Shown here: one piece after another, positions 271 through 27,543 of the stretch | Layout: each line of letters opens with the position of its first letter | How positions within the stretch are numbered: the stretch's first letter is position 1 | Virus record (IMG/VR): IMGVR_UViG_2778261535_000002 | DNA: 30,513 nucleotides | Reading direction: 5' to 3' (one strand) | Origin: a virus | Taxonomy: Duplodnaviria > Heunggongvirae > Uroviricota > Caudoviricetes | Translations under genes and position numbers: made by a program | Notes under the pieces: model-generated | Told to the model about the DNA's origin: nothing | The model's database searches: none | Seen by the model: the letters and a program-made list of their open reading frames with translations, nothing else

Positions 271-911
271 TTGTCGGTATACCTCTCTCGTTTGCTCAGT
301 TGTTCAGGAATATGGTGCAGCAGCTCGCCGTCGCCGCAGTAAATGGCGGCATGATTCGGCACCGATGAACCAAAGCAGCACAGCAGCACATCGCCCGGCT
401 GCGCCTCTGTCAGTGCGACACGGTAAAAACCAGTCGCCTCCATATTGTCAAGATAGAGATTCTGGCCGTGACGCCACCAGTCATCCCCGCGATGAAAATC
501 CGGCATCTCAATCCCCGCCAGATGGTAAGCGTCCCGGAACAGCGTGTAACAGTCCGTCACCCCGTGCTCAAAGCGCCGCCCGGTGAGATGCGGCACACAG
601 CGGAACTTATGAATCACTCCCCGGCAGACCAGCCACCACGGCAAATCACTCTGCACCTGCAGCCGCCTGTCGGCCTCACTCAGCCAGGGCAGACCACCGG
701 GGTGGCTGTGGACCAGCGCCACAATCTCACCCTGTATTTCTGCCTGCAGCCAGTCCTCCGGAGCCATCCGGAAATAATCCTCCGGCTCACCGGAGATATT
801 CACGCAGGGAAAATATCTTTCTCCCTCCAGTGTTCTCACCACGAAGCCGCACGACTCCGCTGGCGCACATCGCCGGGCGTGCGCCAGAATCGCTGATTCA
901 GTTTCTGTCAT
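168..911 (-). CDS. K: tail tip assembly protein K
   Basis: ORF 168..953 trimmed to the internal MTETESAIL start at 911, 4 nt after the L stop; lambda-like sequence and synteny L-K-I. Confidence 0.8.
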   Translation of the reverse strand: MTETESAILAHARRCAPAESCGFVVRTLEGERYFPCVNISGEPEDYFRMAPEDWLQAEIQGEIVALVHSHPGGLPWLSEADRRLQVQSDLPWWLVCRGVIHKFRCVPHLTGRRFEHGVTDCYTLFRDAYHLAGIEMPDFHRGDDWWRHGQNLYLDNMEATGFYRVALTEAQPGDVLLCCFGSSVPNHAAIYCGDGELLHHIPEQLSKRERYTDKWQRRTHSLWRHRAWHASAFTGIYNDLAAASTFV

Positions 912-915
912 GGAT

Positions 916-1614
916 TTACTGCGAAAGTTTGTTAATGGAAAGGTAACCGCCAAAGTTGCCGAGGTTATTGCGAAACTTACAACCGCTCAGGCATTTGCTG
1001 CACTTATCCTTCGTGATATCGGACGTCGGCTGATCATATTCATCCGCGACCGCCGGACCGTGATAACCGCACTCATCGCCGCGATAGGTCCAGGTGCAGG
1101 TATTAGCCAGCATGATGCGCCCCGGAAAAACGGCACCATCCGTTTCCGTCGGTGTGGACAACACAAAGGAGGCACTGACCGCGCTCAGTTCGCTGCACTG
1201 CTCAATGCGCCAGCGGCTGAGCACCTCCTGCTCCGGATCGGCGTCACTGTTTCCGTTGACGAAGTTCACCGCATCCAGAAAACGGGCGTAAACCTTACGC
1301 CTGACCACCGTTCCGCCGACCAGACTCTGCAGATCTTCCGCCATCCCGGTGACCATACCGTGCAGGTTAGAAACCGTCAGTGTCGGACGGGCAGCACTGC
1401 CCTTGCCGTTCAGTTCAAATCCTGTCCCCTGAATGGGATACGGCTGATACCGTCGCCCCTGCCAGGTGACCGGCTCACCTTTTTCGTTCTGCTCATTACA
1501 GAAAAAATAACGTTCTCCACCGACCTCTGTCAGATCGATTTCCCAGAGCACCACGCTGGCCGACTGCTCCGCACGGGTGCATTCATTCAGTGTTTCCTGC
1601 CGGATATCCTGCAT
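916..1614 (-). CDS. L: minor tail protein L
   Basis: 232 aa ORF, same length as lambda L, placed between M and K. Confidence 0.85.
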   Translation of the reverse strand: MQDIRQETLNECTRAEQSASVVLWEIDLTEVGGERYFFCNEQNEKGEPVTWQGRRYQPYPIQGTGFELNGKGSAARPTLTVSNLHGMVTGMAEDLQSLVGGTVVRRKVYARFLDAVNFVNGNSDADPEQEVLSRWRIEQCSELSAVSASFVLSTPTETDGAVFPGRIMLANTCTWTYRGDECGYHGPAVADEYDQPTSDITKDKCSKCLSGCKFRNNLGNFGGYLSINKLSQ

Positions 1615-1943
1615 CAGTTCACCACCTGTTCAAACTCTGCGCTGAACTCAACACGCAACATACTGACCCGCGACGACCATTTTGCGCAGGTCACCTTTAT
1701 CTGCCGGTAGCCATAAGGCGGCGTCCACAGAAAGGCCTTCCAGCCCCCGTGCTCTGCCAGAAACGATTCCAGTGCCGTGGCCTCCTCGCGGGGAACAGAA
1801 AGCGTCACGCTGTACGTTTTCAGGTCGGCGTTCAGCCCGGCAGGCGCACGCTGAGAATAGCCATCACCAAAGCGCACCTTTCTTACAGAAGGGGCCGAAG
1901 CCACATCCATACCGGGTTTCACTTTCCAGCGGAAGGTTTTCAT
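1614..1943 (-). CDS. M: minor tail protein M
   Basis: 109 aa ORF, same length as lambda M; start overlaps the H stop. Confidence 0.85.
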   Translation of the reverse strand: MKTFRWKVKPGMDVASAPSVRKVRFGDGYSQRAPAGLNADLKTYSVTLSVPREEATALESFLAEHGGWKAFLWTPPYGYRQIKVTCAKWSSRVSMLRVEFSAEFEQVVN

Positions 1944-4501
1944 CGTCCACCTCCGGAGAACAGACCACCATCGCGCATCTGCCCGGTCACAACATCCATT
2001 GCCGCCTTACGGGCTACGTCATAAACAGCCTTCAGTGCCTGTGGCCCTATCTGACCGTTCGTGCCGTCGTTGTTAATCACCACATGGTTATTCTGCTCAA
2101 ACGTCCCGGACGCCTGCGAGCGGCTGTCCGCCATGCTGCCAGGTGTACCGACATAACCGCCGGTGGCATAGCCGCGCATCAGCCGGTAGAGATTTCCCAC
2201 GCCAATCCGGCTGGTTGCCTCCTTCGTGAAGACAAACTCACCACGGTGAACAATCCCCGCTGGCTCATATTTGCCGCCGGTTCCCGTAAATCCCCCGGTC
2301 GCAAAATGGAATTTCGCCGCAGCGGCCTGAATGGCTGTACCGCCTGACGCGGATGCGCCGCCACCAACAGCCACGCCAATGGCGCTGCCGATACTCCCGA
2401 CAATCCCCACCATTGCCTGCTTAAGCAGAATTTCTGTCATCATGGACAGCACGGAGCGGGTGAAGCTGCGCCAGTTCTGCTCACTGCCGGTCAGCATCGC
2501 CGCCATATTCTGTGCAATACCATCAAAGGTCTGCGTGGCTGCACTTTTTACCTGCGACATACTGTCCGTGGCGCTCTCTTCCCACTCACTCCAGCCGGAC
2601 TTCAGGCCTGCCATCCAGCTCCCGCGAAGCTGGTCTTCAGCCGCCCAGGTCTTTTTCTGCTCTGACATGACGTTATTCAGCGCCAGAGGATTATCGCCAT
2701 ACTGTTCCTTCAGGCGCTGTTCCGTGGCTTCCCGCGCTGCCTGCCGGTCAGTCAGCCCCCGGCTTTTCGCATCAATGGCGGCCCGTTTTGCCCGTTGCTG
2801 CTGTGCGAATTTATCCTCCTGCTGCGCCAGCGCGTTCAGGCGCTCCTGATACGTAACCTTGTCGCCAAGTGCAGCCAGCTGGCGTTTGTACTCCAGCGTC
2901 TCATCTTTATGCGCCAGCAGGGATTTCTCCTGTGCAGACAGCTGGCGACGTTGCGCCGCCTCCTCCAGTACCGCGAACTGACTTTCTGCCTTCCACAAAT
3001 CCCGGCGCTGCTGGCTGATTTTCTCATTCGCTCCGGCATGCTTCTCCAGCGTCCGGAGTTCTGCCTGAAGCGTCAGCAGGGCAGCATGAGCACTGTCTTC
3101 CTGACGATCGCCCGCAGACACCTTCACGCCGGACTGTTTCGGCTTTTTCAGCGTCTCTTCATAATCCTTTTTCGCCGCCGCCATCAGCGTGTTGTAATCC
3201 GCCTGCAGGATTTTCCCGTCTTTCAGTGCCTTGTTCAGTTCTTCCTGACGGGCGCTATATTTCTCCAGCGGCGTCTGCAGCCGTTCGTAAGCCTTCTGCG
3301 CCTCTTCGGTATATTTCAGCCGTGACGCTTCGGTATCGCTCTGCTGCTGCGCATTTTTGTCCTGTTGAGTCTGCTGCTCAGCCTTCTTTCGGGCGGCTTC
3401 AAGCGCAAGACGGGCCTTTTCACGATCATCCCAGTAACGCGCCCGCGCTTCATCGTTAACAAAATAATCATCCTTGCGCAGATTCCAGATGTCGTCTGCT
3501 TTCTTAAACGCAGCCTCTGCCTTAATCAGCATCTCCTGCGCGGTATCAGGACGACCAATATCCAGCACCGCATCCCACATGGATTTGAATGCCCGCGCTG
3601 TCCTGTCTGCCCAGGTCTCCAGCGTGCCCATGTTCTCTTTCAGGCGGCGGGTCTGGTCATCAAACCCTTTCGTTGCGGCCTCGTTCGCCGCCTGCAATGC
3701 CCCGGCTTCATCGCCGGAACGCTGTAACTGAGCAACATACGCAATCTGCTCCGCCGTCACGTTATGGAACTGGCGTGCCATCGCTGTCAGCCCCGACGTC
3801 GGGTCAGTGGTCAGCTTCCCGAAGGCTTCAGCGACCTTGTCCACCTCCACGCCGGATGCAGAGGAGAAACGCGCCACACTCTGGCTGATGGACGCAATCT
3901 GAGCCTCACCGCTTATCCCAGCCTTAACCAGTGCGCTGAGTGACTCGCTGGTCTGGTTAAACGTCAGCCCTGCCGCCTGCCCGGCTCTGGACAGGACCAG
4001 CATACGATCTGCCGTCAGACCCGACTGATTGCCGGAAAGGACCAGCGTTTTGTTGAAATCGGACAGGGTTGAGTTGCCCTGATACCAGGCATACGCCAGC
4101 GCACCGGTCGCCACTGCCAGCGAGGTGGCCCCGACCATCGGCAGGGTGATCGCACCGGCAAGTCCCCTGAACATGGGGATCATACCGCCGAAGGAGTCCT
4201 TCACCTGACCACCCTGTTGCAGCAGGATCAGCCACGGACTCTGCCCGCCTGCAAGCTGCGTGGCCACGTCGGTGAACTGTGCAGGAAGCATACGCATGGC
4301 GGCTTTATACTGTCCGACGGAAATCCCCGCTTTCTGTGCAGCCAGCGCCTGCCGGTTCATTGACTGTTCAACGACTGCCGCTGTTTTTTTCGCATCACTT
4401 TCCGTACCGGAAAAATGACGCCTGACTCTGGCCATCTGCTCGTCAAATCTGGCCGCATCCAGACTTAAATCAACGACCAGATCGCCTACCGGTTCAGCCA
4501 T
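1940..4501 (-). CDS. H: tail tape measure protein H
   Basis: 853 aa ORF, same length as lambda H; Ala/Gln-rich coiled-coil composition; position after G-T. Confidence 0.9.
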   Translation of the reverse strand: MAEPVGDLVVDLSLDAARFDEQMARVRRHFSGTESDAKKTAAVVEQSMNRQALAAQKAGISVGQYKAAMRMLPAQFTDVATQLAGGQSPWLILLQQGGQVKDSFGGMIPMFRGLAGAITLPMVGATSLAVATGALAYAWYQGNSTLSDFNKTLVLSGNQSGLTADRMLVLSRAGQAAGLTFNQTSESLSALVKAGISGEAQIASISQSVARFSSASGVEVDKVAEAFGKLTTDPTSGLTAMARQFHNVTAEQIAYVAQLQRSGDEAGALQAANEAATKGFDDQTRRLKENMGTLETWADRTARAFKSMWDAVLDIGRPDTAQEMLIKAEAAFKKADDIWNLRKDDYFVNDEARARYWDDREKARLALEAARKKAEQQTQQDKNAQQQSDTEASRLKYTEEAQKAYERLQTPLEKYSARQEELNKALKDGKILQADYNTLMAAAKKDYEETLKKPKQSGVKVSAGDRQEDSAHAALLTLQAELRTLEKHAGANEKISQQRRDLWKAESQFAVLEEAAQRRQLSAQEKSLLAHKDETLEYKRQLAALGDKVTYQERLNALAQQEDKFAQQQRAKRAAIDAKSRGLTDRQAAREATEQRLKEQYGDNPLALNNVMSEQKKTWAAEDQLRGSWMAGLKSGWSEWEESATDSMSQVKSAATQTFDGIAQNMAAMLTGSEQNWRSFTRSVLSMMTEILLKQAMVGIVGSIGSAIGVAVGGGASASGGTAIQAAAAKFHFATGGFTGTGGKYEPAGIVHRGEFVFTKEATSRIGVGNLYRLMRGYATGGYVGTPGSMADSRSQASGTFEQNNHVVINNDGTNGQIGPQALKAVYDVARKAAMDVVTGQMRDGGLFSGGGR

Positions 4502-5332
4502 ACCGGACTCCTCCTGCGATCCCTTCTGATACTGTCATCAGCATTACGTCATCCTCCGTCATGCCCGCCACATCCGGGGAAGCGGGGATAACTTCATTCC
4601 CGTCCGGGTCAAAGCGGACGCCTCCGGCAAGCCCTGCCGCTTTCTGCATCAGCACATCATCTTCAGGCTCTTCGTCAGCCTCACGCCGGTTCAGCAGACT
4701 GAAATCCAGCGGATGCATATCCGGATCGCTGAAAAACAGGCTGAGCACGGTGTACGTCAGCCCGGAAAAGTGCATATCCAGCAGAACATCATGAAAATAA
4801 TGGGTACTGTAAAAGCGGTGCCAGTCGGCATACTCCGTGGATGACATCCCGGCAAGCATGGCGCGCCAGTCGGGTCGCCCCATCTCACGCGCCAGTTTCA
4901 GGGCAAAACTCAGCTCACCGTCGAACACTTTCCCGCAGAAACAGGCTCTGCAGGCCCGGCGTCATCTGCCTGTTCAGGTGCATCATTCACAACAAACTCA
5001 GACATACCGGACAGACGCATTACCACATTTTCAGCCTGAGCAATTGCCTCTGTGGGCCAGGTGGTAAGCACTTCCTGCTCAATTTGTTTAACGGCTTCAT
5101 TCATGGATGGCATCTTTGTCTTCTGCGGATGGTTATGCCACAGGGACATCGCCACCAGAAAAGCACCGGTTCTGACGAGATCTTCCACGCTCACCTGTCG
5201 ATTGACACTGGAGCCCGCCTGTTCTGCCTGTCGTTTCAGCAGGGCGAGATGCTCAATACGCTGCAGGGCTGACAGTTCAGAAAGCGTGACGCTCACACCG
5301 TTATATTCAAATGATTCGGTTTTCAGGAACAT
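4494..5332 (-). CDS. T: tail assembly chaperone G-T fusion made by -1 programmed frameshift
   Basis: T-frame ORF 4494..4928 overlaps the G 3' end; - strand heptamer GGGAAAG at 4928..4934 (+ strand CTTTCCC) is the lambda G/GT slip site. Confidence 0.8.
4910..5332 (-). CDS. G: tail assembly chaperone G
   Basis: 140 aa ORF, same length as lambda G; slippery heptamer near its 3' end. Confidence 0.85.
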   Translation of the reverse strand: MFLKTESFEYNGVSVTLSELSALQRIEHLALLKRQAEQAGSSVNRQVSVEDLVRTGAFLVAMSLWHNHPQKTKMPSMNEAVKQIEQEVLTTWPTEAIAQAENVVMRLSGMSEFVVNDAPEQADDAGPAEPVSAGKCSTVS

Positions 5333-18940: not shown

Positions 18941-19027
18941 ACCCGCTTTCACGAAGGTCATGTGTAGAAGGCCGCAGCGTAACTATCACTGATGAATTCA
19001 GGATAGCCAGTGGCTACGGCTCAGTTA

Positions 19028-19103
19028 TGGTGCTGGTTAACGGACTTGAACCGCTACCCATTCGCTTACAAGGCGACTGCTCTACCATTGGAGCTAAACC
19101 AGC
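19028..19103 (-). tRNA. tRNA-Thr, anticodon UGU, with encoded CCA
   Basis: Hand-folded cloverleaf: 7/7 acceptor pairs (GCTGGTT/AACCAGC), 4 bp D stem, anticodon loop CTTGTAA, T arm AGCGG-TTCAAGT-CCGTT, discriminator A, CCA. Confidence 0.7.
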
Positions 19104-19108
19104 ATGTT

Positions 19109-19183
19109 TGGCGGGACAGCGTGGACTCGAACCACGATAAGAAGGTTAACAGCCTTCCGTAATGACCTTTATACGACTGACCC
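19109..19183 (-). tRNA. tRNA-like gene, probably tRNA-Asn (anticodon GUU), slightly atypical
   Basis: Acceptor stem 6/7 paired, D stem 3 bp plus one mismatch with GG in the loop, perfect anticodon stem GAAGG/CCTTC with loop CTGTTAA, T arm CGTGG-TTCGAGT-CCACG, discriminator G, CCA. Confidence 0.5.
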
Positions 19184-19184
19184 A

Positions 19185-19229
19185 AATAAAAAAAGCCACC
19201 GTTGCAACTTAAGAGTCACTAACGGCAGC
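19185..19229 (-). terminator. hairpin plus T7 run immediately downstream of the Q-like gene (tR'-like candidate)
   Basis: - strand CTGCCGTT ... AACGGTGG stem followed by CTTTTTTTATTTG, directly abutting the 5' end of the tRNA-like gene. Confidence 0.4.
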
Positions 19230-19246
19230 TTACCTTCTAATTATGG

Positions 19247-19765
19247 CTAAATGGATAATTGCATGTCAAGGCTTTTAACAGCAACATGCTTAACTTTCTC
19301 AACACGTTTACGCATTTTGAAAGCATTTTGCATTGGCTGGTACAAAACAAATAACGACGCTTTCAGGATGTCGTCAATTTCGTTTCTACAGGTTGCCAGT
19401 GAAGGTTTTCTCCATCCCTCGCCACCACGTCCACACATCTTGCGTGGCTTTGCAGTCGCGTGATAGTAGGATGCAATTGCTCGCTTAGATGAACCATGAG
19501 CGTAGTAGCTGAGGAGGATGCCAAAGGCTTTCTTGTCAATGCACATGACGGAATCGACGACCTGAGAAATCAACATTCCATCATCATCATTGCACATTGG
19601 CCTTGTCATAACTCTTCCCGGCTCTACGCTCTCCATGAACTTCGCTATTACGCTGCTCATACGCTTTTCCAGACGACCTGAATAAACCCATGCGCCCCAC
19701 AGTTCAAGCCAGCCATTCAGCCACTCATGCTGTTCTTTGGTGAGGTTTAGTTCTCTTATGCCCAC
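19247..19765 (-). CDS. putative late-gene antiterminator Q, not lambda type
   Basis: 172 aa ORF in the Q slot between ninI and the lysis cassette; sequence is unlike recalled lambda Q (207 aa). Confidence 0.55.
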
Positions 19766-20427
19766 GCGCCTTCTCCCTGTACCTGAATCAATGTGAGATT
19801 TCCGCAGAACACTGCGCCGGTATCGATATACATCTGGTTGGCAAATTTGAGTGGTTTCACTGCTGGCGTATGACCAAAGATGAACGTGTCCGCGCCTTTA
19901 ATTTCTTTCACGATCCCGTCTTGTGAGTTGCTGATTCGTTTGCGGTTCCAGATTACCTGCTGATGATCAACTGGCTTTCCAAACTCGTATTCGTCAAAGG
20001 GATAATCGGCGTGGCAGATAACATATTTTTTATCTTTGCTCACCAGTTCGATGATTAACGGAAGTTCTTCTGCTTTATGGGCAAGAGCTTTAGCCAGAAT
20101 TTCTTTGTCGTAATCGAGATTAAAGAACCAGCCACCGCCATTAAGCAGCCAGTGATTGACGTTTCCACGCTCTGATAAGCCATCAATCATCATTTGCTCA
20201 TGGTTTCCACGTACAGCTCTGAACCAGGGGAATGTGATTAATTCCAGACATTCGACGTTCTCTGTACCGCGATCAACCAAATCGCCCACCGAGATAAGCA
20301 GGTCTTTTTTGGTGTCGAATCCTATCGTCTCCAGTTTTTTCATCAGGTTCGTGTAGCATCCGTGCAGATCGCCAACTACCCAAATATTTCGGTATTTGCT
20401 GCCATCAATTTTTTCGTAATAGCGCAT
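19756..20427 (-). CDS. ninI: Ser/Thr protein phosphatase NinI (lambda orf221 type)
   Basis: ORF trimmed to the [25 protein letters not shown] start, which has GGAG upstream; GDLHG and GNHE metallophosphatase motifs. Confidence 0.85.
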
Positions 20428-20611
20428 CTCTTTCACTCCATCCGCGATGAACCATGAGAACGTCGTTGACGATGGCGTGCATTTTCCCGTCTTTATCATC
20501 AACGTATTTTCTGACCGTACCGCGACTACATTTCAGTCTGCGTGCTACTTCTGTCTGGTTTCCGTATGCTTCAACGAGCATGTCTGGAATGGTTTTTACT
20601 GAGAACGTCAT
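20405..20611 (-). CDS. ninH: NinH
   Basis: 68 aa ORF starting [36 protein letters not shown], recalled lambda NinH. Confidence 0.85.
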
Positions 20612-21219
20612 GCGGCCTCACTTCTGCTATTTCGCAGGTCTTTGAGTTTCTGCTGATACTCCGCCTTGATGGCCCTGCACTCTTCGACAGTCCAGCGATG
20701 GCGGTTATGGTTTGATTCGATTTCGTCTACTGCTTCCTGCCCGATGCGATTAATCAGTTCGACGCGATACGGAACGAGATTTCCGCTTTTGTGCTGGTTG
20801 CACACCACGCATTGCTTGTGAATATTGCGTTCATCAAATCGGAGTTGAGGTGCCGCAGCAGTTGTCCGGTAATGTCCGGCATCCCACTGAGCAGACGTGA
20901 GCGTTCCGCACGAGATACATGGTAAGTCGCGGTCTCTTTCTCTGATGAAGGCGTTTACGGCTTGTTGGGCTTGTTTAATCCAGTAACTGCGGGGCTTTAA
21001 GGCGAGTTTTCGAATCTTAAGTTTATCTTTCTGTCTCTGATCCTCTCGTCGTCGTTTCTTCTCTGCTGCTTTTTCCGCTTTTTCGCGTTCTTTACTTCGT
21101 CGTTCGAGTGCTATCTTGGTTCCACACTCTGGAGAGCACCACCACTGATTAGCGAATGCAGGGTGAAACCATTCCCGACATTCATCGTTTTTACATCGTC
21201 TTCGCGCTGGTTTAGCCAT
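20608..21219 (-). CDS. ninG: NinG (Rap) recombination protein
   Basis: 203 aa Cys- and basic-rich ORF in the lambda NinG position. Confidence 0.8.
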
Positions 21220-21388
21220 CGTCTTCTTCCTCGTACATTGAGCTATTCGGATCGCTCATCAGTTCTGCGCAGCAGTGCTCACACACATGAACTTCCAGCA
21301 CATGCAGCTTCTGACTGCAGTTAGCGCACGTTAAAGCCCGCTCGACGCTTTCTTTCTGGTATTGAAGGGATTGGGATGGGCTAAGCAT
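21212..21388 (-). CDS. ninF: NinF
   Basis: ORF 21212..21442 trimmed to the [26 protein letters not shown] start (58 aa), recalled lambda NinF. Confidence 0.75.
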
Positions 21389-21788
21389 GGCTTTCACCAT
21401 TAAAAAGTCGCTTGTAAGCATCAATGTCTCGTTTTGCTTCACCGAGCTTTCGTCTTAATTCCATGTTTTCTGATTCAAGCTTTTCCATGTCTTGTTGGTA
21501 TCGATCGCGGTGTTCTTTCCATGCTTTTCGATACGCCTTCATGTATGTCGTATTGGCCTTTCTCTTTGCCTGACGAACCGCATGGTGGTTTTTCACAAAC
21601 CAGTCAGGGTCGTTAAATGCTGCTCTGGCGCATGTATACCAATAATTTGTTGCCTCCCTGTTTAGCCAATAAATACTGATAAATGGCAACCGGATAGACA
21701 CCATTTTTCGTTGTGACTCTTTCTCGCCAAACATGTGTCCTTTTTTGATGCTAAGGCCAAATCCAGGTTGAATTAAAAGCATTGTCAT
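21381..21788 (-). CDS. hypothetical protein between ninE and ninF (NinX-like position), coiled-coil C-terminus
   Basis: ORF 21381..21824; the MTMLLIQ start at 21788 overlaps the NinE stop as ATGA; lambda has no gene here. Confidence 0.5.
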
Positions 21789-21961
21789 TTCCTCGCACGA
21801 TGTCTTAGCCACCGGATATCCCACAGGTGAGCCGTGTAGTTGAAGGTTTTTACGTCAGATTCTTTTGGGATTGGCTTGCGTTTATTTCTGGAGCGTTTCG
21901 TTGGAAGGTATTTGCAGTTTTCACAGATTATGTCGGTGATGCTTCGTCGCTGTCGCCTCAT
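21785..21961 (-). CDS. ninE: NinE
   Basis: ORF 21785..22051 trimmed to [40 protein letters not shown] (58 aa), recalled lambda NinE. Confidence 0.8.
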
Positions 21962-22485
21962 GCCGCCCTCCTGACGCCCCGCCCGATCGCCATCAATGCC
22001 GCTTTGGATACGGTAGTAAACATCCGTCGAGGACTGATGAGCGGTCGCCAAATCAGCAGCATGGAGCCTTTGCTGTTTCCCTTCTTCTCCAGCCCTGTCG
22101 ATGGTTCGATAAAATTAATCCGTCCATCAGTGATAATGCGAACTTCGTCGACACTCTCCAGAGCCTTGCTGAACCATCCGACTGACATATCCTCTGGCAC
22201 AAGCATAACTACCGTCTGTCGCTGTTGTATGCACTGCTCAGCGGCTTTTTCCACCCACGGCCTGATATTGCTGTACGGTGGGTTATTCCAGATTGCACCG
22301 TGGCTTATCCACTCAGAATTTAGCGCGTCGTCGGCCTCAGTTAGCCAGTGAGCGCACAGAGCGTTTTTGTCGCTCGCAGCTGAATCCAGCCAGAATCCAA
22401 ACTCAATATCCAGCGCATCAAAAAGCCAAAGCGGCGTTTGCCAGCAGTCCTTGTCGTGTGCTGGCGTATTTGATTTGATAGTCAT
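21958..22485 (-). CDS. phage DNA N6-adenine methyltransferase (Dam-like)
   Basis: ORF 21958..22512 trimmed to the [22 protein letters not shown] start, which overlaps the NinB stop; catalytic NPPY motif (IWNNPPYSN). Confidence 0.7.
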
Positions 22486-22928
22486 GCAGCCTTCCCTTTT
22501 CGTTGTGACCATTCATACTCTCGCCGGGAGTCATCACTCCACCGCACGTTGCGCTCTGAGCCGAACCAGAACATGATTTCGATAAGCTCAGTCATGCTGG
22601 CCTTTCGCATTTTGCTGGTACGCACGCCAAGCATAACAACGCCACCGTCGATACCAGGCGCACTTCGTTGCTCCAGTTTTTTGGTCTTAAGCCACAGGGC
22701 AGTGAACAGGTCTTTCCAGTCCTCCGGCGCAAGTCTCTCTCCATGCCAAAGCACCTGACGCGATACGTCCTGCAATAACGCCCACATAAGGCGGTTTTGA
22801 GGATTGCTCCGCTTTGGTTCTTTAATGTGGACTTCGTGAGGTGACTTGTCGTCGATCGGAAGTGAGAGTATTGCGTCTATGGCGTTGTTTCTGATTGCTT
22901 CGTTGCGAAGCATGTATATTTGCTTCAT
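22482..22928 (-). CDS. ninB: NinB (Orf-family recombination mediator)
   Basis: 148 aa ORF with a C-terminal ...[21 protein letters not shown], similar in length and pattern to lambda NinB. Confidence 0.75.
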   Translation of the reverse strand: MKQIYMLRNEAIRNNAIDAILSLPIDDKSPHEVHIKEPKRSNPQNRLMWALLQDVSRQVLWHGERLAPEDWKDLFTALWLKTKKLEQRSAPGIDGGVVMLGVRTSKMRKASMTELIEIMFWFGSERNVRWSDDSRREYEWSQRKGKAA

Positions 22929-22935
22929 CGTTACC

Positions 22936-23142
22936 TCAACTCACAAAACGCCACGCCACTTTTGCTACGACAACAGGCATAACACCGATAATCACCCACA
23001 GGAAAATGCTACCGAAAAGCACACCCACCAGGTCTTTACCTTCGCCTACCAACCGGACAAAACTGCTGGCAACAACAATGAACGTCGCCACCATCCACAT
23101 AGCACCGAGAATCCTCAATGCAGAGAAAATTAACTCAGCCAC
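22936..23142 (-). CDS. small hydrophobic protein with two predicted transmembrane helices (GTG start)
   Basis: 68 aa ORF (MAELIFSALRILGAMWMVATFIVVASSFV ... LVGVLFGSIFLWVIIGVMPVVVA); GGGGGAGGG 6 nt upstream of the GTG; lies directly after the tR2-like terminator. Confidence 0.55.
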   Translation of the reverse strand: MAELIFSALRILGAMWMVATFIVVASSFVRLVGEGKDLVGVLFGSIFLWVIIGVMPVVVAKVAWRFVS

Positions 23143-23156
23143 GATTTACCCTCCCC

Positions 23157-23189
23157 CAAATAAAAAGGCCTGCGATTACCAGCAGGCCT
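23157..23189 (-). terminator. intrinsic terminator downstream of ren (tR2-like)
   Basis: - strand AGGCCTGC-TGGTAATC-GCAGGCCT followed by TTTTTATTTG. Confidence 0.75.
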
Positions 23190-23214
23190 GTTATTAGCTC
23201 AGTGATGTAGATGG

Positions 23215-23505
23215 TCATCTTTTAACTCCATATACCGCCAATACCCGTTTCATCGCGGCACTCTGGCGACACTCCTTAAAAATCAGGTTCGTGCTCATCT
23301 TTCCTTCCCGTTCTTCCCTGGTAGCAAACCGGTAATACACCGTTCGCCAGACCTTACCTTCGATAACCAGAAGACCTGCCCGTGCCATTTTAGCCGCGGC
23401 CTGATTTATGCTGGTTACTGTTGCGCCTGTTAGCGCGGCAACGTCCGGCGCACAGAAGCTATTATGCGTCCCCAGGTAATGAATAATTGCCTCTTTGCCC
23501 GTCAT
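23215..23505 (-). CDS. ren: Ren (Rex exclusion resistance protein)
   Basis: 96 aa ORF starting MTGKEAIIHYLGTHNSFCAPDVAALTG, recalled lambda Ren. Confidence 0.85.
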   Translation of the reverse strand: MTGKEAIIHYLGTHNSFCAPDVAALTGATVTSINQAAAKMARAGLLVIEGKVWRTVYYRFATREEREGKMSTNLIFKECRQSAAMKRVLAVYGVKR

Positions 23506-24203
23506 ACACTTGCTCCTTTCAGTCCGAACTTAGCTTTGAGTTCTGCGATCTTCGCCAGAGCCTGTGCACGATTTAGAGGTCTACCGCCCATGACAGGAAG
23601 TTGTTTTACTGGTTCAGGGATCGCCTCACCACGGTTAATTCTCGCAGTCATATGGACAAGCTCATCTGCGGCCTTACGGCGTAATTCCGCATCAGTAAGC
23701 GCATTGGCCCGCATGTTCTGATACAGGTTGGTAACCAGCCAGTAGTGCGCGTTTGATTTCCACGGATAAGACTCCGCATCCGGATACAGGCCTCGCTTCC
23801 GGCAATACTCGTAAACCATATCAACCAGCTCGCTGACGTTTGGCAGTCCGGCGATAACGGATGCTTCTTCCCGGCACCATGCAACAAACTGCCCGGGTGA
23901 TGGCAGAAATGGTCGATTCTGCCGACGGGCTACGCGCATTCCTGCGTTAACCTGTTCCATTGTGGTGATCCCGTTTTCCCGGAAAGCCAGCACCCACTGG
24001 CGGCGGATTTCGTTCAGTTCGTTCTGGTCCCGGTTAGCCAGGCTCGCCGGGAAAGTTGCCAGTAACTGGCTGAACACACCATTGATGATCTGCGCTACCT
24101 GCTGTACCTGCGGCTTTTCGTCGTACTGTTCCGGCATGTTGTTGGCGATCCTACGCATCTGCTCACGGTCAAAGTTAACCATCTGTGCGGCGATGTTTTT
24201 CAT
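23502..24203 (-). CDS. P: replication protein P (DnaB helicase loader)
   Basis: 233 aa ORF, same length and position as lambda P. Confidence 0.9.
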   Translation of the reverse strand: MKNIAAQMVNFDREQMRRIANNMPEQYDEKPQVQQVAQIINGVFSQLLATFPASLANRDQNELNEIRRQWVLAFRENGITTMEQVNAGMRVARRQNRPFLPSPGQFVAWCREEASVIAGLPNVSELVDMVYEYCRKRGLYPDAESYPWKSNAHYWLVTNLYQNMRANALTDAELRRKAADELVHMTARINRGEAIPEPVKQLPVMGGRPLNRAQALAKIAELKAKFGLKGASV

Positions 24204-25099
24204 AGATCCACCCCGTAAATCCAGTCTGTGTTTGTCAGGTCGAGTTTTGGTTTGCTGGCTGTCACGACTGCCTGTTGCTTGTTACGGTTGATTTCGAGCT
24301 GGGTCCACTTGTCGCGGAGTTTGGCCGGGCTAAGCACGTTACCGGACCAGAAGTTGTCCTGGCATGCCCAGCGGAACAGCACGCACATGTCGCGGTGGTT
24401 ACGTCCGTCACGTTCACGCATCAGGCGGATATCGTTAGCCCACCCTGCAAAATTCGGTTTTCTGGCTGATGGCGCGATGGTCTTCACCATGTCAAACATC
24501 CACTCTGCGGCGGTCAGGTCTTCTGCTGTTCCCCACTTGCTGCCGCTCTGAATTGCAGCATCCGGTTTAACCACAGAAAGATCGTTTTCTGGCTGGTCAG
24601 AGGATTCGCCAGAATTCTCGGACGAATAATCTTTTCTTTTTTCTTTTGTAATAGTGTCTTTTGTGTCCCCCTGTTTTGAGGGATAGCAATCCCCCAATTT
24701 GAGGGATGTTTTATCCCTCGTTTTAGGGGATTTTCCCTCGTTTTGAGGGATACACCATTCTGAGATGTTTTTATTTGGTCCAAACATGCCGCCTTGCTGC
24801 TTGATAATATTCATTCTGACGAGTTCTAACTTGGCTTCATTGCACCGTTTGACAGGTAACTTTGTAATCTCGCTAAGTTGAGAATCGGTGATTCTGTCCA
24901 TTGGTTTATTCCACCCATAGGTTTTACGCAGAATGGCAAGCAGCACTTTAAACTGTCGCTTGGTCAGATCTGCGCCCGAATAAGCCTCAAGCAGCATATT
25001 TGATAGTCTGGCGTAACCATCATCGAGATCTGCCACATTACGCTCCTGTCCGGCAAAGTTACCTCTGCCGAAGTTGAGTATTTTTGCTGTATTTGTCAT
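24200..25099 (-). CDS. O: replication initiator O
   Basis: 299 aa ORF, same length as lambda O; contains the ori iterons. Confidence 0.9.
   Translation of the reverse strand: MTNTAKILNFGRGNFAGQERNVADLDDGYARLSNMLLEAYSGADLTKRQFKVLLAILRKTYGWNKPMDRITDSQLSEITKLPVKRCNEAKLELVRMNIIKQQGGMFGPNKNISEWCIPQNEGKSPKTRDKTSLKLGDCYPSKQGDTKDTITKEKRKDYSSENSGESSDQPENDLSVVKPDAAIQSGSKWGTAEDLTAAEWMFDMVKTIAPSARKPNFAGWANDIRLMRERDGRNHRDMCVLFRWACQDNFWSGNVLSPAKLRDKWTQLEINRNKQQAVVTASKPKLDLTNTDWIYGVDL
24665..24760 (-). repeat. ori: ori lambda iterons (four O-binding repeats) with adjacent AT-rich region
   Basis: Repeated TCCCTC ... GAGGGA units inside the O reading frame; neighbouring AT-rich stretch with a GAATTC site as in lambda ori. 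Confidence 0.85.
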
Positions 25100-25109
25100 A
25101 ATGACTCCT

Positions 25110-25187
25110 GTTGATAGATCCAGTAATGACCTCAGAACTCCATCTGGATTTGTTCAGAACGCTCGGTTGCCGCCGGGCGTTTTTTAT
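25110..25187 (+). ncRNA. oop: oop antisense RNA ending at the t0 terminator
   Basis: Matches recalled lambda oop/t0 sequence (GTTGATAGATCCAGTAATGACC ... GGTTGCCGCCGGGCGTTTTTTATT); antisense to the cII 3' end. Confidence 0.65.
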
Positions 25188-25425
25188 TGGTGAGAATCGC
25201 AGCAACTTGTCGCGCCAATCGAGCCATGTCGTCGTCAACGACCCCCCATTCAAGAACAGCAAGCAGCATTGAGAACTTGGGAATCCAGTCTCTCTTCCAC
25301 CTGCTGATCTGCGACTTATCAACTCCCACAGCTTCCGCTGTCTTCTCAGTTCCAAGCATTGCGATTTTGTTAAGCAACGCACTCTCGATTCGTAGTGCCT
25401 CGTTGCGTTTGTTTGCACGAACCAT
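25132..25425 (-). CDS. cII: transcriptional activator cII
   Basis: ORF trimmed to the MVRANKRNEALRIESALLNKIAMLGTEKTAEAVGVDKSQISRWKRDWIPKF start (97 aa), recalled lambda cII. Confidence 0.9.
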   Translation of the reverse strand: MVRANKRNEALRIESALLNKIAMLGTEKTAEAVGVDKSQISRWKRDWIPKFSMLLAVLEWGVVDDDMARLARQVAAILTNKKRPAATERSEQIQMEF

Positions 25426-25543: not shown

Positions 25544-25753
<210 letters not shown>

Positions 25754-25770
25754 TTAGTACATGCAACTAT

Positions 25771-25834
25771 TATCACCGCCAGAGGTAAAATAGTCAACAC
25801 GCACGGTGTTAGATGTTTATCCCTTGCGGTGATA
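25771..25834. promoter_or_regulatory. OR: right operator OR1-OR2-OR3 with divergent PR and PRM
   Basis: TATCACCGCCAGAGGTA (25771..25787), CAACACGCACGGTGTTA (25795..25811), TATCCCTTGCGGTGATA (25818..25834); all three match recalled lambda OR sites. Confidence 0.9.
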
Positions 25835-25841
25835 GATTTAA

Positions 25842-26558
<717 letters not shown>

Positions 26559-26685: not shown

Positions 26686-27543
26686 ATGAAGAAAGCAGCA
26701 ATTTTAATTGATGCGGGTTTTTTCATGCAGCGTGTTCATGCTACGCATCGTAAACACTTCGCCGAGCATGAACTGACTGCGCAATGCATAATGAAAGTAA
26801 TATGGTCAATGGTTCTTTCCCATCTTAATGGAAAACGTCAATCACAAGAACGTAGGGAACCGCTTGAGCTTTATAGAATTTACTTCTATGACTGTCCACC
26901 ACTCGACATTCAAACACGCCTTCCACTTCCTGAGCCTGGCAATAAGACGCCTGGTCGCAAGAATTTCAAACTCGAAAAATCATATATTCTGAGAACGGAG
27001 CTGCATGAAGAGTTAAGAAAAACTCGAAAAACAGCCTTAAGATTAGGGAATCTTGTTGATAATAAGCGATGGCAACTAACTACATTCTCCCTTGATGCTC
27101 TGATGAAAGGAACGAAAAAATGGGATGAACTGACAAATGATGATTTTTACTATGACATCAAACAAAAACAAGTTGATATCAAGCTAGGGATGGATATCAC
27201 GACTTTAGCTTATGAAAAACTTGTTGATGTAATTGTCCTTGTTGCTGGGGACTCAGACTTTGTGCCTGCCGCCAAACACGCCAGAATTAAAGGTATTGAT
27301 TTTATTCTTGATCCACTAAGACAGAATGTTACCCCATCACTGTCAGAGCACATTGATGGAGTTCAGTCATACAGCTTGATATCAGGACTTGCCGATGCTT
27401 TACATGTTGAGCCAGACCCGGCACCTGACTGGTGGGAAGATCGAAAAAAAGGCAAGCCTAGAGGAAAAAACAATAGCGGTAAACGCAGGTATGGAAACAC
27501 TCAAGCTGAGTCTGCAAAGAAACATCAAAGAAATAAACGATAA
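26686..27543 (+). CDS. NYN/PIN-like domain protein (predicted nuclease) occupying the rexA-rexB slot
   Basis: 285 aa ORF; N-terminal AAILIDAGFF and later VDVIVLVAGDSDFVPAAKHARIKGIDFIL fit the NYN/LabA-like pattern with conserved acidic residues; Lys/Arg-rich C-terminal tail; unlike recalled RexA or RexB. Confidence 0.6.
   Translation: MKKAAILIDAGFFMQRVHATHRKHFAEHELTAQCIMKVIWSMVLSHLNGKRQSQERREPLELYRIYFYDCPPLDIQTRLPLPEPGNKTPGRKNFKLEKSYILRTELHEELRKTRKTALRLGNLVDNKRWQLTTFSLDALMKGTKKWDELTNDDFYYDIKQKQVDIKLGMDITTLAYEKLVDVIVLVAGDSDFVPAAKHARIKGIDFILDPLRQNVTPSLSEHIDGVQSYSLISGLADALHVEPDPAPDWWEDRKKGKPRGKNNSGKRRYGNTQAESAKKHQRNKR

Follow-up and report, generated by a model that had tools for sequence, protein, structure and literature searches.

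In lambda, ninC and ninD lie between ninB and ninE, and in the lambda-like DNA analyzed here this position holds a single open reading frame. What does the gene encode, which sequence would its product modify, and why would a phage carry it? We addressed these questions in a stretch of viral DNA of 30,513 nucleotides, referred to here as the window, for which an earlier note drawn from the letters alone had proposed a Dam-like N6-adenine methyltransferase. We conclude that the gene, called dam below, very probably specifies a member of the T1/HP1/VT2 "phage Dam" family, an orphan, SAM-dependent DNA N6-adenine methyltransferase that acts on GATC, and we propose a mechanism, an expression pattern and a role to go with this reading. 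The gene as such is already known, being equivalog-annotated, very common and provided with a target in the literature; what keeps it of interest is how a core of 175 residues reads GATC without a recognition domain and why a phage duplicates a mark of its host.

The gene and its protein family

Read from the minus strand, a point left unstated in the first reading, the dam gene contains no frameshifts or internal stops (Table 1). Its ATG at 22485 is shared by RefSeq, all the phage annotations examined, and 46 homologues. An alternative start at ATG 22512, from the mechanical ORF list, was rejected; the resulting protein of 184 aa is used by neither annotations nor homologues, and its frame overlaps ninB by 31 nt. 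Profile searches were decisive for the proposed N6-adenine methyltransferase identity. The protein matches Pfam PF05869 (Dam) with 215.5 bits against a cutoff of 28.1 (E 5e-64, model positions 1-167 of 169) and the NCBIfam equivalog TIGR01712 (phage N-6-adenine-methyltransferase) with 263 bits against a cutoff of 97.05 (E 7.5e-79, positions 1-165 of 165), and such E-values show that dam is not a chance ORF. It also matches phrog_111, its best PADLOC matches are "orphan methyltransferase" models, and the identical CDS in Escherichia coli RM10740 is annotated in RefSeq as phage N-6-adenine-methyltransferase (WP_089515634.1).

The NPPY catalytic motif that had been picked out by eye is borne out at residues 68-71, and a family alignment of 47 sequences shows no variation at any of the four. 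Also invariant are L33, D34 and A36 of the putative SAM-binding segment, which we take to be the equivalent of motif I, with the LEPAC motif of M.TaqI as the analogue, and which coincides with a strand in the structural model (E31-36). All the family-invariant residues of this alignment are present in the dam protein, and both its (D/N)PPY motif and its conserved SAM-binding segment align with those of phage T1 Dam (YP_003925; 33% identity over 160 residues, E 6e-27). T1 Dam (M.EcoT1Dam) and the HP1/HP2 Dam group belong to the same PF05869 family, and T1 Dam shares the NPPY and LD-AAS motifs along with GATC specificity. However, it is longer (237 aa), being extended by 48 residues at the N-terminus and interrupted by an insertion of 14 residues after residue 109, and T1 is a virulent phage.

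Two other groups of enzymes resemble dam in name or activity but not in family. The alpha-class enzymes E. coli Dam, T4 Dam and DpnM (PF02086) likewise make m6A in GATC, are orphans and have the general Rossmann methyltransferase fold, but PF05869 is the sole Pfam match of the dam protein at E <= 0.01. Among phage enzymes, only T2 and T4 Dam are considered homologues of cellular Dam (PMC7139368). The second group is represented by the MT-A70-type enzyme of Stx prophages (M.EcoGV / M.EcoPA8orf6770P), a prophage gene that is annotated "Dam/GATC" and co-occurs with dam on Stx prophages; it differs in its DPPW-motif family, its other locus, its required partner PNB-2 and its preference for 16S rRNA (PMC10810198). 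The dam protein has NPPY, not DPPW, and no MT-A70 Pfam match.

The neighbours of dam are ninB and ninE, as their own families PF05772 and PF05322 identify them, which confirms the placement of a 175-aa ORF between these two genes; further out lie orf68 and orf133. A restriction gene adjacent to dam, as in a type II restriction-modification pair, is absent, and the annotation of the operon holds no nuclease partner for the methyltransferase flanked by NinB and NinE. A copy with at least 90% DNA identity occurs in 1566 of the 5426 complete E. coli genomes (~29%), with up to 5 copies per genome, and 244 phage records carry a copy at least 95% identical (tblastn). The earlier description of an orphan methyltransferase that is common cargo thus stands.

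Table 1. Coordinates of dam and associated features in the window
Feature	Position	Strand	Basis or remarks
dam (phage N-6-adenine-methyltransferase CDS)	21958..22485	minus	ATG at 22485, TGA 21960..21958; 528 nt, 175 aa
ATGA junction, ninB TGA / dam ATG	22482..22485	minus	sequence
ATGA junction, dam TGA / ninE ATG	21958..21961	minus	sequence
GGGAAGG, Shine-Dalgarno-like (putative function)	22490..22496	minus	ends 4 nt 5' of dam ATG, inside ninB 3' end
Catalytic motif IV, N68-P69-P70-Y71	22273..22284	minus	AAC CCA CCG TAC, read from sequence
L33-D34-S35-A36-A37-S38, proposed SAM-binding motif I equivalent	22372..22389	minus	end of predicted strand beta1
ninB (Orf-family recombination mediator), upstream coupled gene	22482..22928	minus	PF05772, 164 bits
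ninE, downstream coupled gene, lambda-like	21785..21961	minus	PF05322, 148 bits; 97% DNA identity to lambda 42097..42263
tR2-like intrinsic terminator, 3' of ren and 5' of the nin genes and dam	23166..23189	minus	AGGCCTGCTGGTAATCGCAGGCCT then TTTTATTT
PR-like promoter, TTGACT-17-GATAAT	25769..25797	minus	consensus scan, 10/12 matches; directly 5' of lambda-type cro ORF 25744..25544
orf133 (133 aa)	21381..21782	minus	between ninE and ninF
orf68 (68 aa, GTG start)	22936..23142	minus	between tR2-like terminator and ninB
285-aa ORF	26686..27543	plus	directly 3' of lambda-type cI (25845..26558)

Target sequence and predicted fold

The earlier note had regarded the target specificity as unknown, a view that is superseded by reports on close relatives. 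With 3-4 conservative differences, the dam protein shares 98% identity with the methyltransferases encoded in the nin regions of the Stx2 phages 933W, VT2-Sakai and Stx2-86; in a pairwise alignment with the VT2-Sakai enzyme, three residues differ (I60V, L149F and R169Q). The VT2-Sakai (NP_050531) and 933W (NP_049494) proteins also have 175 aa, start at the same ATG and are encoded in the same place directly after ninB, but their genes reside in Stx phages, whereas dam here is carried by a phage with lambda immunity and lambda structural genes. Radlinska and Bujnicki reportedly cloned the VT-2 enzyme, essentially identical to the one here, in 2001 and found a GATC target. Two later papers agree, the one stating that M.EcoVT2Dam, the orphan methyltransferase of prophage VT2-Sa, targets 5'-GATC-3' (PMC6602927, citing Radlinska and Bujnicki 2001, PMID 11720311) and the other, from Radlinska's group, that GATC-to-Gm6ATC activity has been demonstrated for VT-2 (PMC7139368). 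M.EcoVT2Dam is probably the product of the nin-region gene, as opposed to that of the MT-A70-type gene which Stx prophages carry elsewhere, since M.EcoGV-like and M.EcoVT2Dam-like enzymes are two different genes on one prophage (PMC6602927), M.EcoGV is of the MT-A70 type, and the nin-region gene of 933W carries the remark "similar to methylases of bacteriophage HP1 and T1" in its record. Moreover, M.EcoT1Dam is itself a G(m6A)TC-modifying enzyme (PMC4996451). Judged by these sequence relationships, the most likely target of the dam protein is the adenine in 5'-GATC-3', which host Dam methylates as well. The occurrence of GATC in the window provides no further clue to function: its 95 sites (observed/expected 0.65 under a Markov model, within the range of TATA, GGCC and CGCG) are neither avoided nor enriched to an unusual degree and do not cluster at ori or promoters.

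A sequence search of the PDB (phmmer) returned neither a related chain nor a Dam chain, only chance matches (SdiA, E 0.17). No member of the family has a solved structure, and we therefore used a predicted model and a fold search. The AlphaFold model, built on the 47-sequence alignment, is confident (pLDDT 90.5, pTM 0.88) and has the alternating strand-helix core of a minimal methyltransferase, that is, a predicted class I SAM-methyltransferase fold akin to that of N6-adenine enzymes. Its resemblance to the gamma-class enzymes (M.TaqI, M.BseCI and type I HsdM) and to PCIF1 exceeds that to E. coli Dam, and its nearest structural neighbours are not Dam-type enzymes with an inserted recognition domain. 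The best match is PCIF1, an mRNA cap adenosine N6-methyltransferase, and the other top matches are DNA enzymes. These gamma-class enzymes and PCIF1 are only 11-17% identical to the dam protein; they are longer (380-750 aa) and either contain large recognition domains or have partner subunits, whereas the dam protein is a catalytic core alone, with no separate target-recognition domain. Given this gamma-class-like fold and the lack of a match to the E. coli Dam family, the label "Dam-like" is right for function but not for ancestry, and "Dam" here denotes a function attained by a family unrelated to host Dam.

For the mechanism, the roles of residues in contact with SAM, adenine and DNA are our assumption by analogy with M.TaqI, based on the alignment and the model. 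A minimal Rossmann-type core would bind SAM through two elements, L33-D34-x-A36-A37, with which strand 1 ends, and E50/D53, which follow strand 2, and the flipped target adenine would be held in the N68-P69-P70-Y71 pocket that follows strand 64-68. The hairpin between the last core strands, conserved at 120-140 (G121, R122, F125, N137, K139 and G140), may read the DNA, and the conserved N-terminus (S5, T7, D13, W15, T17 and P18) may join it in replacing the target-recognition domain.

A possible extension of the GATC reading, adding to it rather than replacing it, is that specificity is relaxed at lytic levels of the enzyme, so that related non-GATC adenines are methylated too and the phage gains wider anti-restriction cover than host Dam gives. 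A cloned relative from Bibersteinia, 35% identical to M.EcoT1Dam, methylates GATC with appreciable off-target activity (PMC4996451), promiscuity is frequent among prophage methyltransferases (PMC4659465), and the dam protein lacks the recognition domain of its best structural matches (175 aa versus 382-750 aa). The assay of the VT-2 enzyme was probably restriction digestion, which is blind to off-target sites. We nevertheless consider this extension unlikely, since the 98%-identical M.EcoVT2Dam is listed with GATC only, and SMRT methylomes of strains with two copies contain no extra attributable motif, although the gene may be silent in lysogens (PMC6602927).

It is highly improbable that, as in Stx prophage PA8 with its "Dam" of the MT-A70 type, the dam protein mainly methylates RNA, possibly with a partner encoded next door. 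The PA8 gene, annotated as a GATC DNA methyltransferase, turned out to encode a 16S rRNA methyltransferase when bound to its neighbour's product (PMC10810198); the top structural match of the dam protein is an mRNA cap enzyme, and dam is tightly coupled to ninB and ninE. However, the PA8 enzyme is of a different family (MT-A70, DPPW) and is encoded elsewhere in the prophage, and we rejected it on this ground as a case that would overturn the DNA-methylase reading. Moreover, T1 Dam, VT-2 Dam and M.Btr190III methylate DNA at GATC when expressed alone, DNA enzymes make up the rest of the top structural matches, and NinB is a DNA-recombination protein. Finally, orphan methylases can in general descend from decayed restriction-modification systems, and truncated and fused dam copies exist in the database, but the full-length alignment to TIGR01712 without frameshift or internal stop, the presence of the invariant residues, the flanking NinB and NinE in place of a nuclease, and the retention of the same intact gene in ~29% of complete E. 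coli genomes exclude that dam is vestigial and inactive or that it is the methylase of a restriction-modification pair, readings to which we assign next to no probability.

Coupling, expression, and proposed role

The overlapping ATGA junctions with both neighbours, as first described, are real. They also occur at O/P, P/ren and ninG/ninH of the same operon, making this a general habit and not one specific to dam, and ATGA coupling is a feature of all lambdoid nin regions (PMC8022706). The dam ATG directly follows AAAGGGAAGGCTGC, which holds the Shine-Dalgarno-like element. Among database entries, several "fusion" proteins (P0001, P0005, P0011, P0015, P0022, P0109 and P0117) join the methyltransferase domain to NinE, NinB or other phage neighbours, and truncated copies of dam are found as well. 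Given the ATGA overlaps, the "fusion" entries are most likely gene-calling or frameshift artefacts, not real fusions.

Upstream of dam, the intrinsic terminator falls within a segment 98.8% identical to lambda 38600..40634, and we name it after the tR2 terminator of lambda. The location of dam downstream of this terminator, together with its coupling to ninB and ninE, suggests that the enzyme is probably made only during lytic growth. The PR-like promoter would drive cro-cII-O-P-ren-nin transcription, and dam, as part of this PR operon, would be a delayed-early, N-dependent gene that is off in the lysogen and comes on after induction or infection via N antitermination. The analogy with lambda underlies this expectation.

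If dam is indeed a lytic gene, why add to a mark that the host already makes? In virions of lambda and P22 the DNA is incompletely methylated by Dam, probably for the reason that the host enzyme falls behind replication (PMC8022706). With host Dam outpaced in lytic growth, the phage copy would on the simplest reading serve as a GATC top-up. It would complete the GATC methylation of replicating DNA before packaging and so shield the progeny, in the next host, against methylation-sensitive restriction enzymes that cut GATC; it could also keep MutH and SeqA off replicating or recombining phage DNA. Since the host makes the same mark, the advantage of the phage gene may be small.

The surroundings of dam in other phages add a further element. 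Gene content varies in this region: Salmonella phage Oslo has the order ninB-dam-ninC-ninD-ninE (compared locus 506..2658), in Stx2-86 ninB and dam are separated by an HNH endonuclease gene (compared locus 1493..3207), and 933W has a P63C-domain gene, not ninE, after dam (compared locus 2381..4582). Despite these differences, dam lies at or next to ninB in all three, and this near-constant placement right after a recombination mediator may reflect a functional link. If so, full GATC methylation would prevent MutH and SeqA from acting on mismatched intermediates when mosaic phages recombine. The combined proposal, in which such a link with ninB goes along with off-GATC targets at lytic levels like those of the Bibersteinia relative, is quite unlikely as a whole.

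Resemblance to lambda and mosaic surroundings

The window represents a lambda-like phage or prophage, covering 85% of lambda at 96.6% identity, with cI, cro and N of the lambda type. Identity to lambda is 98.8% in O-P-ren and 97-98% in ninE and ninF-ninI, but the block between them (23150..21955), which carries orf68 and dam as well as ninB in a different allele, does not match the DNA of lambda 40635..42096 (ninB-ninC-ninD). Consistent with this, blastn found no match between lambda ninB and the ninB of the window, which is a non-lambda allele at the DNA level. Homology to NinC or NinD was not found at the dam position; lambda NinC is annotated as PAPS-reductase-like. The earlier statement that dam stands in place of ninC and ninD is thus correct for position but not as a replacement, since the exchanged block also includes orf68 and ninB, and since phage Oslo has dam, ninC and ninD together, showing that they are not alternatives.

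This segment has a counterpart in E. coli RM10740, which is 100% identical over 21700..23000 and aligns at 97.8% over 18966..25193. As a whole-window comparison limits the alignment to the latter range, we rejected the idea that the window is the RM10740 prophage and used its annotation for the nin segment only. No match to the whole window was found among the complete E. coli genomes and phage records searched. The window is mosaic, its structural genes and immunity region following lambda without a match to RM10740.

Several minor features accompany this mosaic structure. The product of orf68 belongs to phrog_1165 and that of orf133, a gene absent from lambda, matches phrog_1511 over its full length, both of unknown function; orf133 has no Pfam family above cutoff, and its 3' end overlaps the start of ninF by 41 nt. 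Similarity to lambda ends at lambda 43885, the ninI/Q boundary, where the lambda record has a misc_recomb feature (43884..43885), and the Q antiterminator gene is outside the lambda-matching DNA. Just 3' of Q lie tRNA-Thr(tgt) and tRNA-Asn(gtt); this part of the window comprises 19028..19183 and 19247..19765, both on the minus strand. The 285-aa ORF next to cI encodes an NYN/LabA-like nuclease domain (PF01936, 36.8 bits) and has weak PADLOC HEC-09 and NYN matches. In lambda, the slot downstream of cI is occupied by rexA/rexB, and here the ORF may have taken their place as a prophage gene for exclusion or defence.
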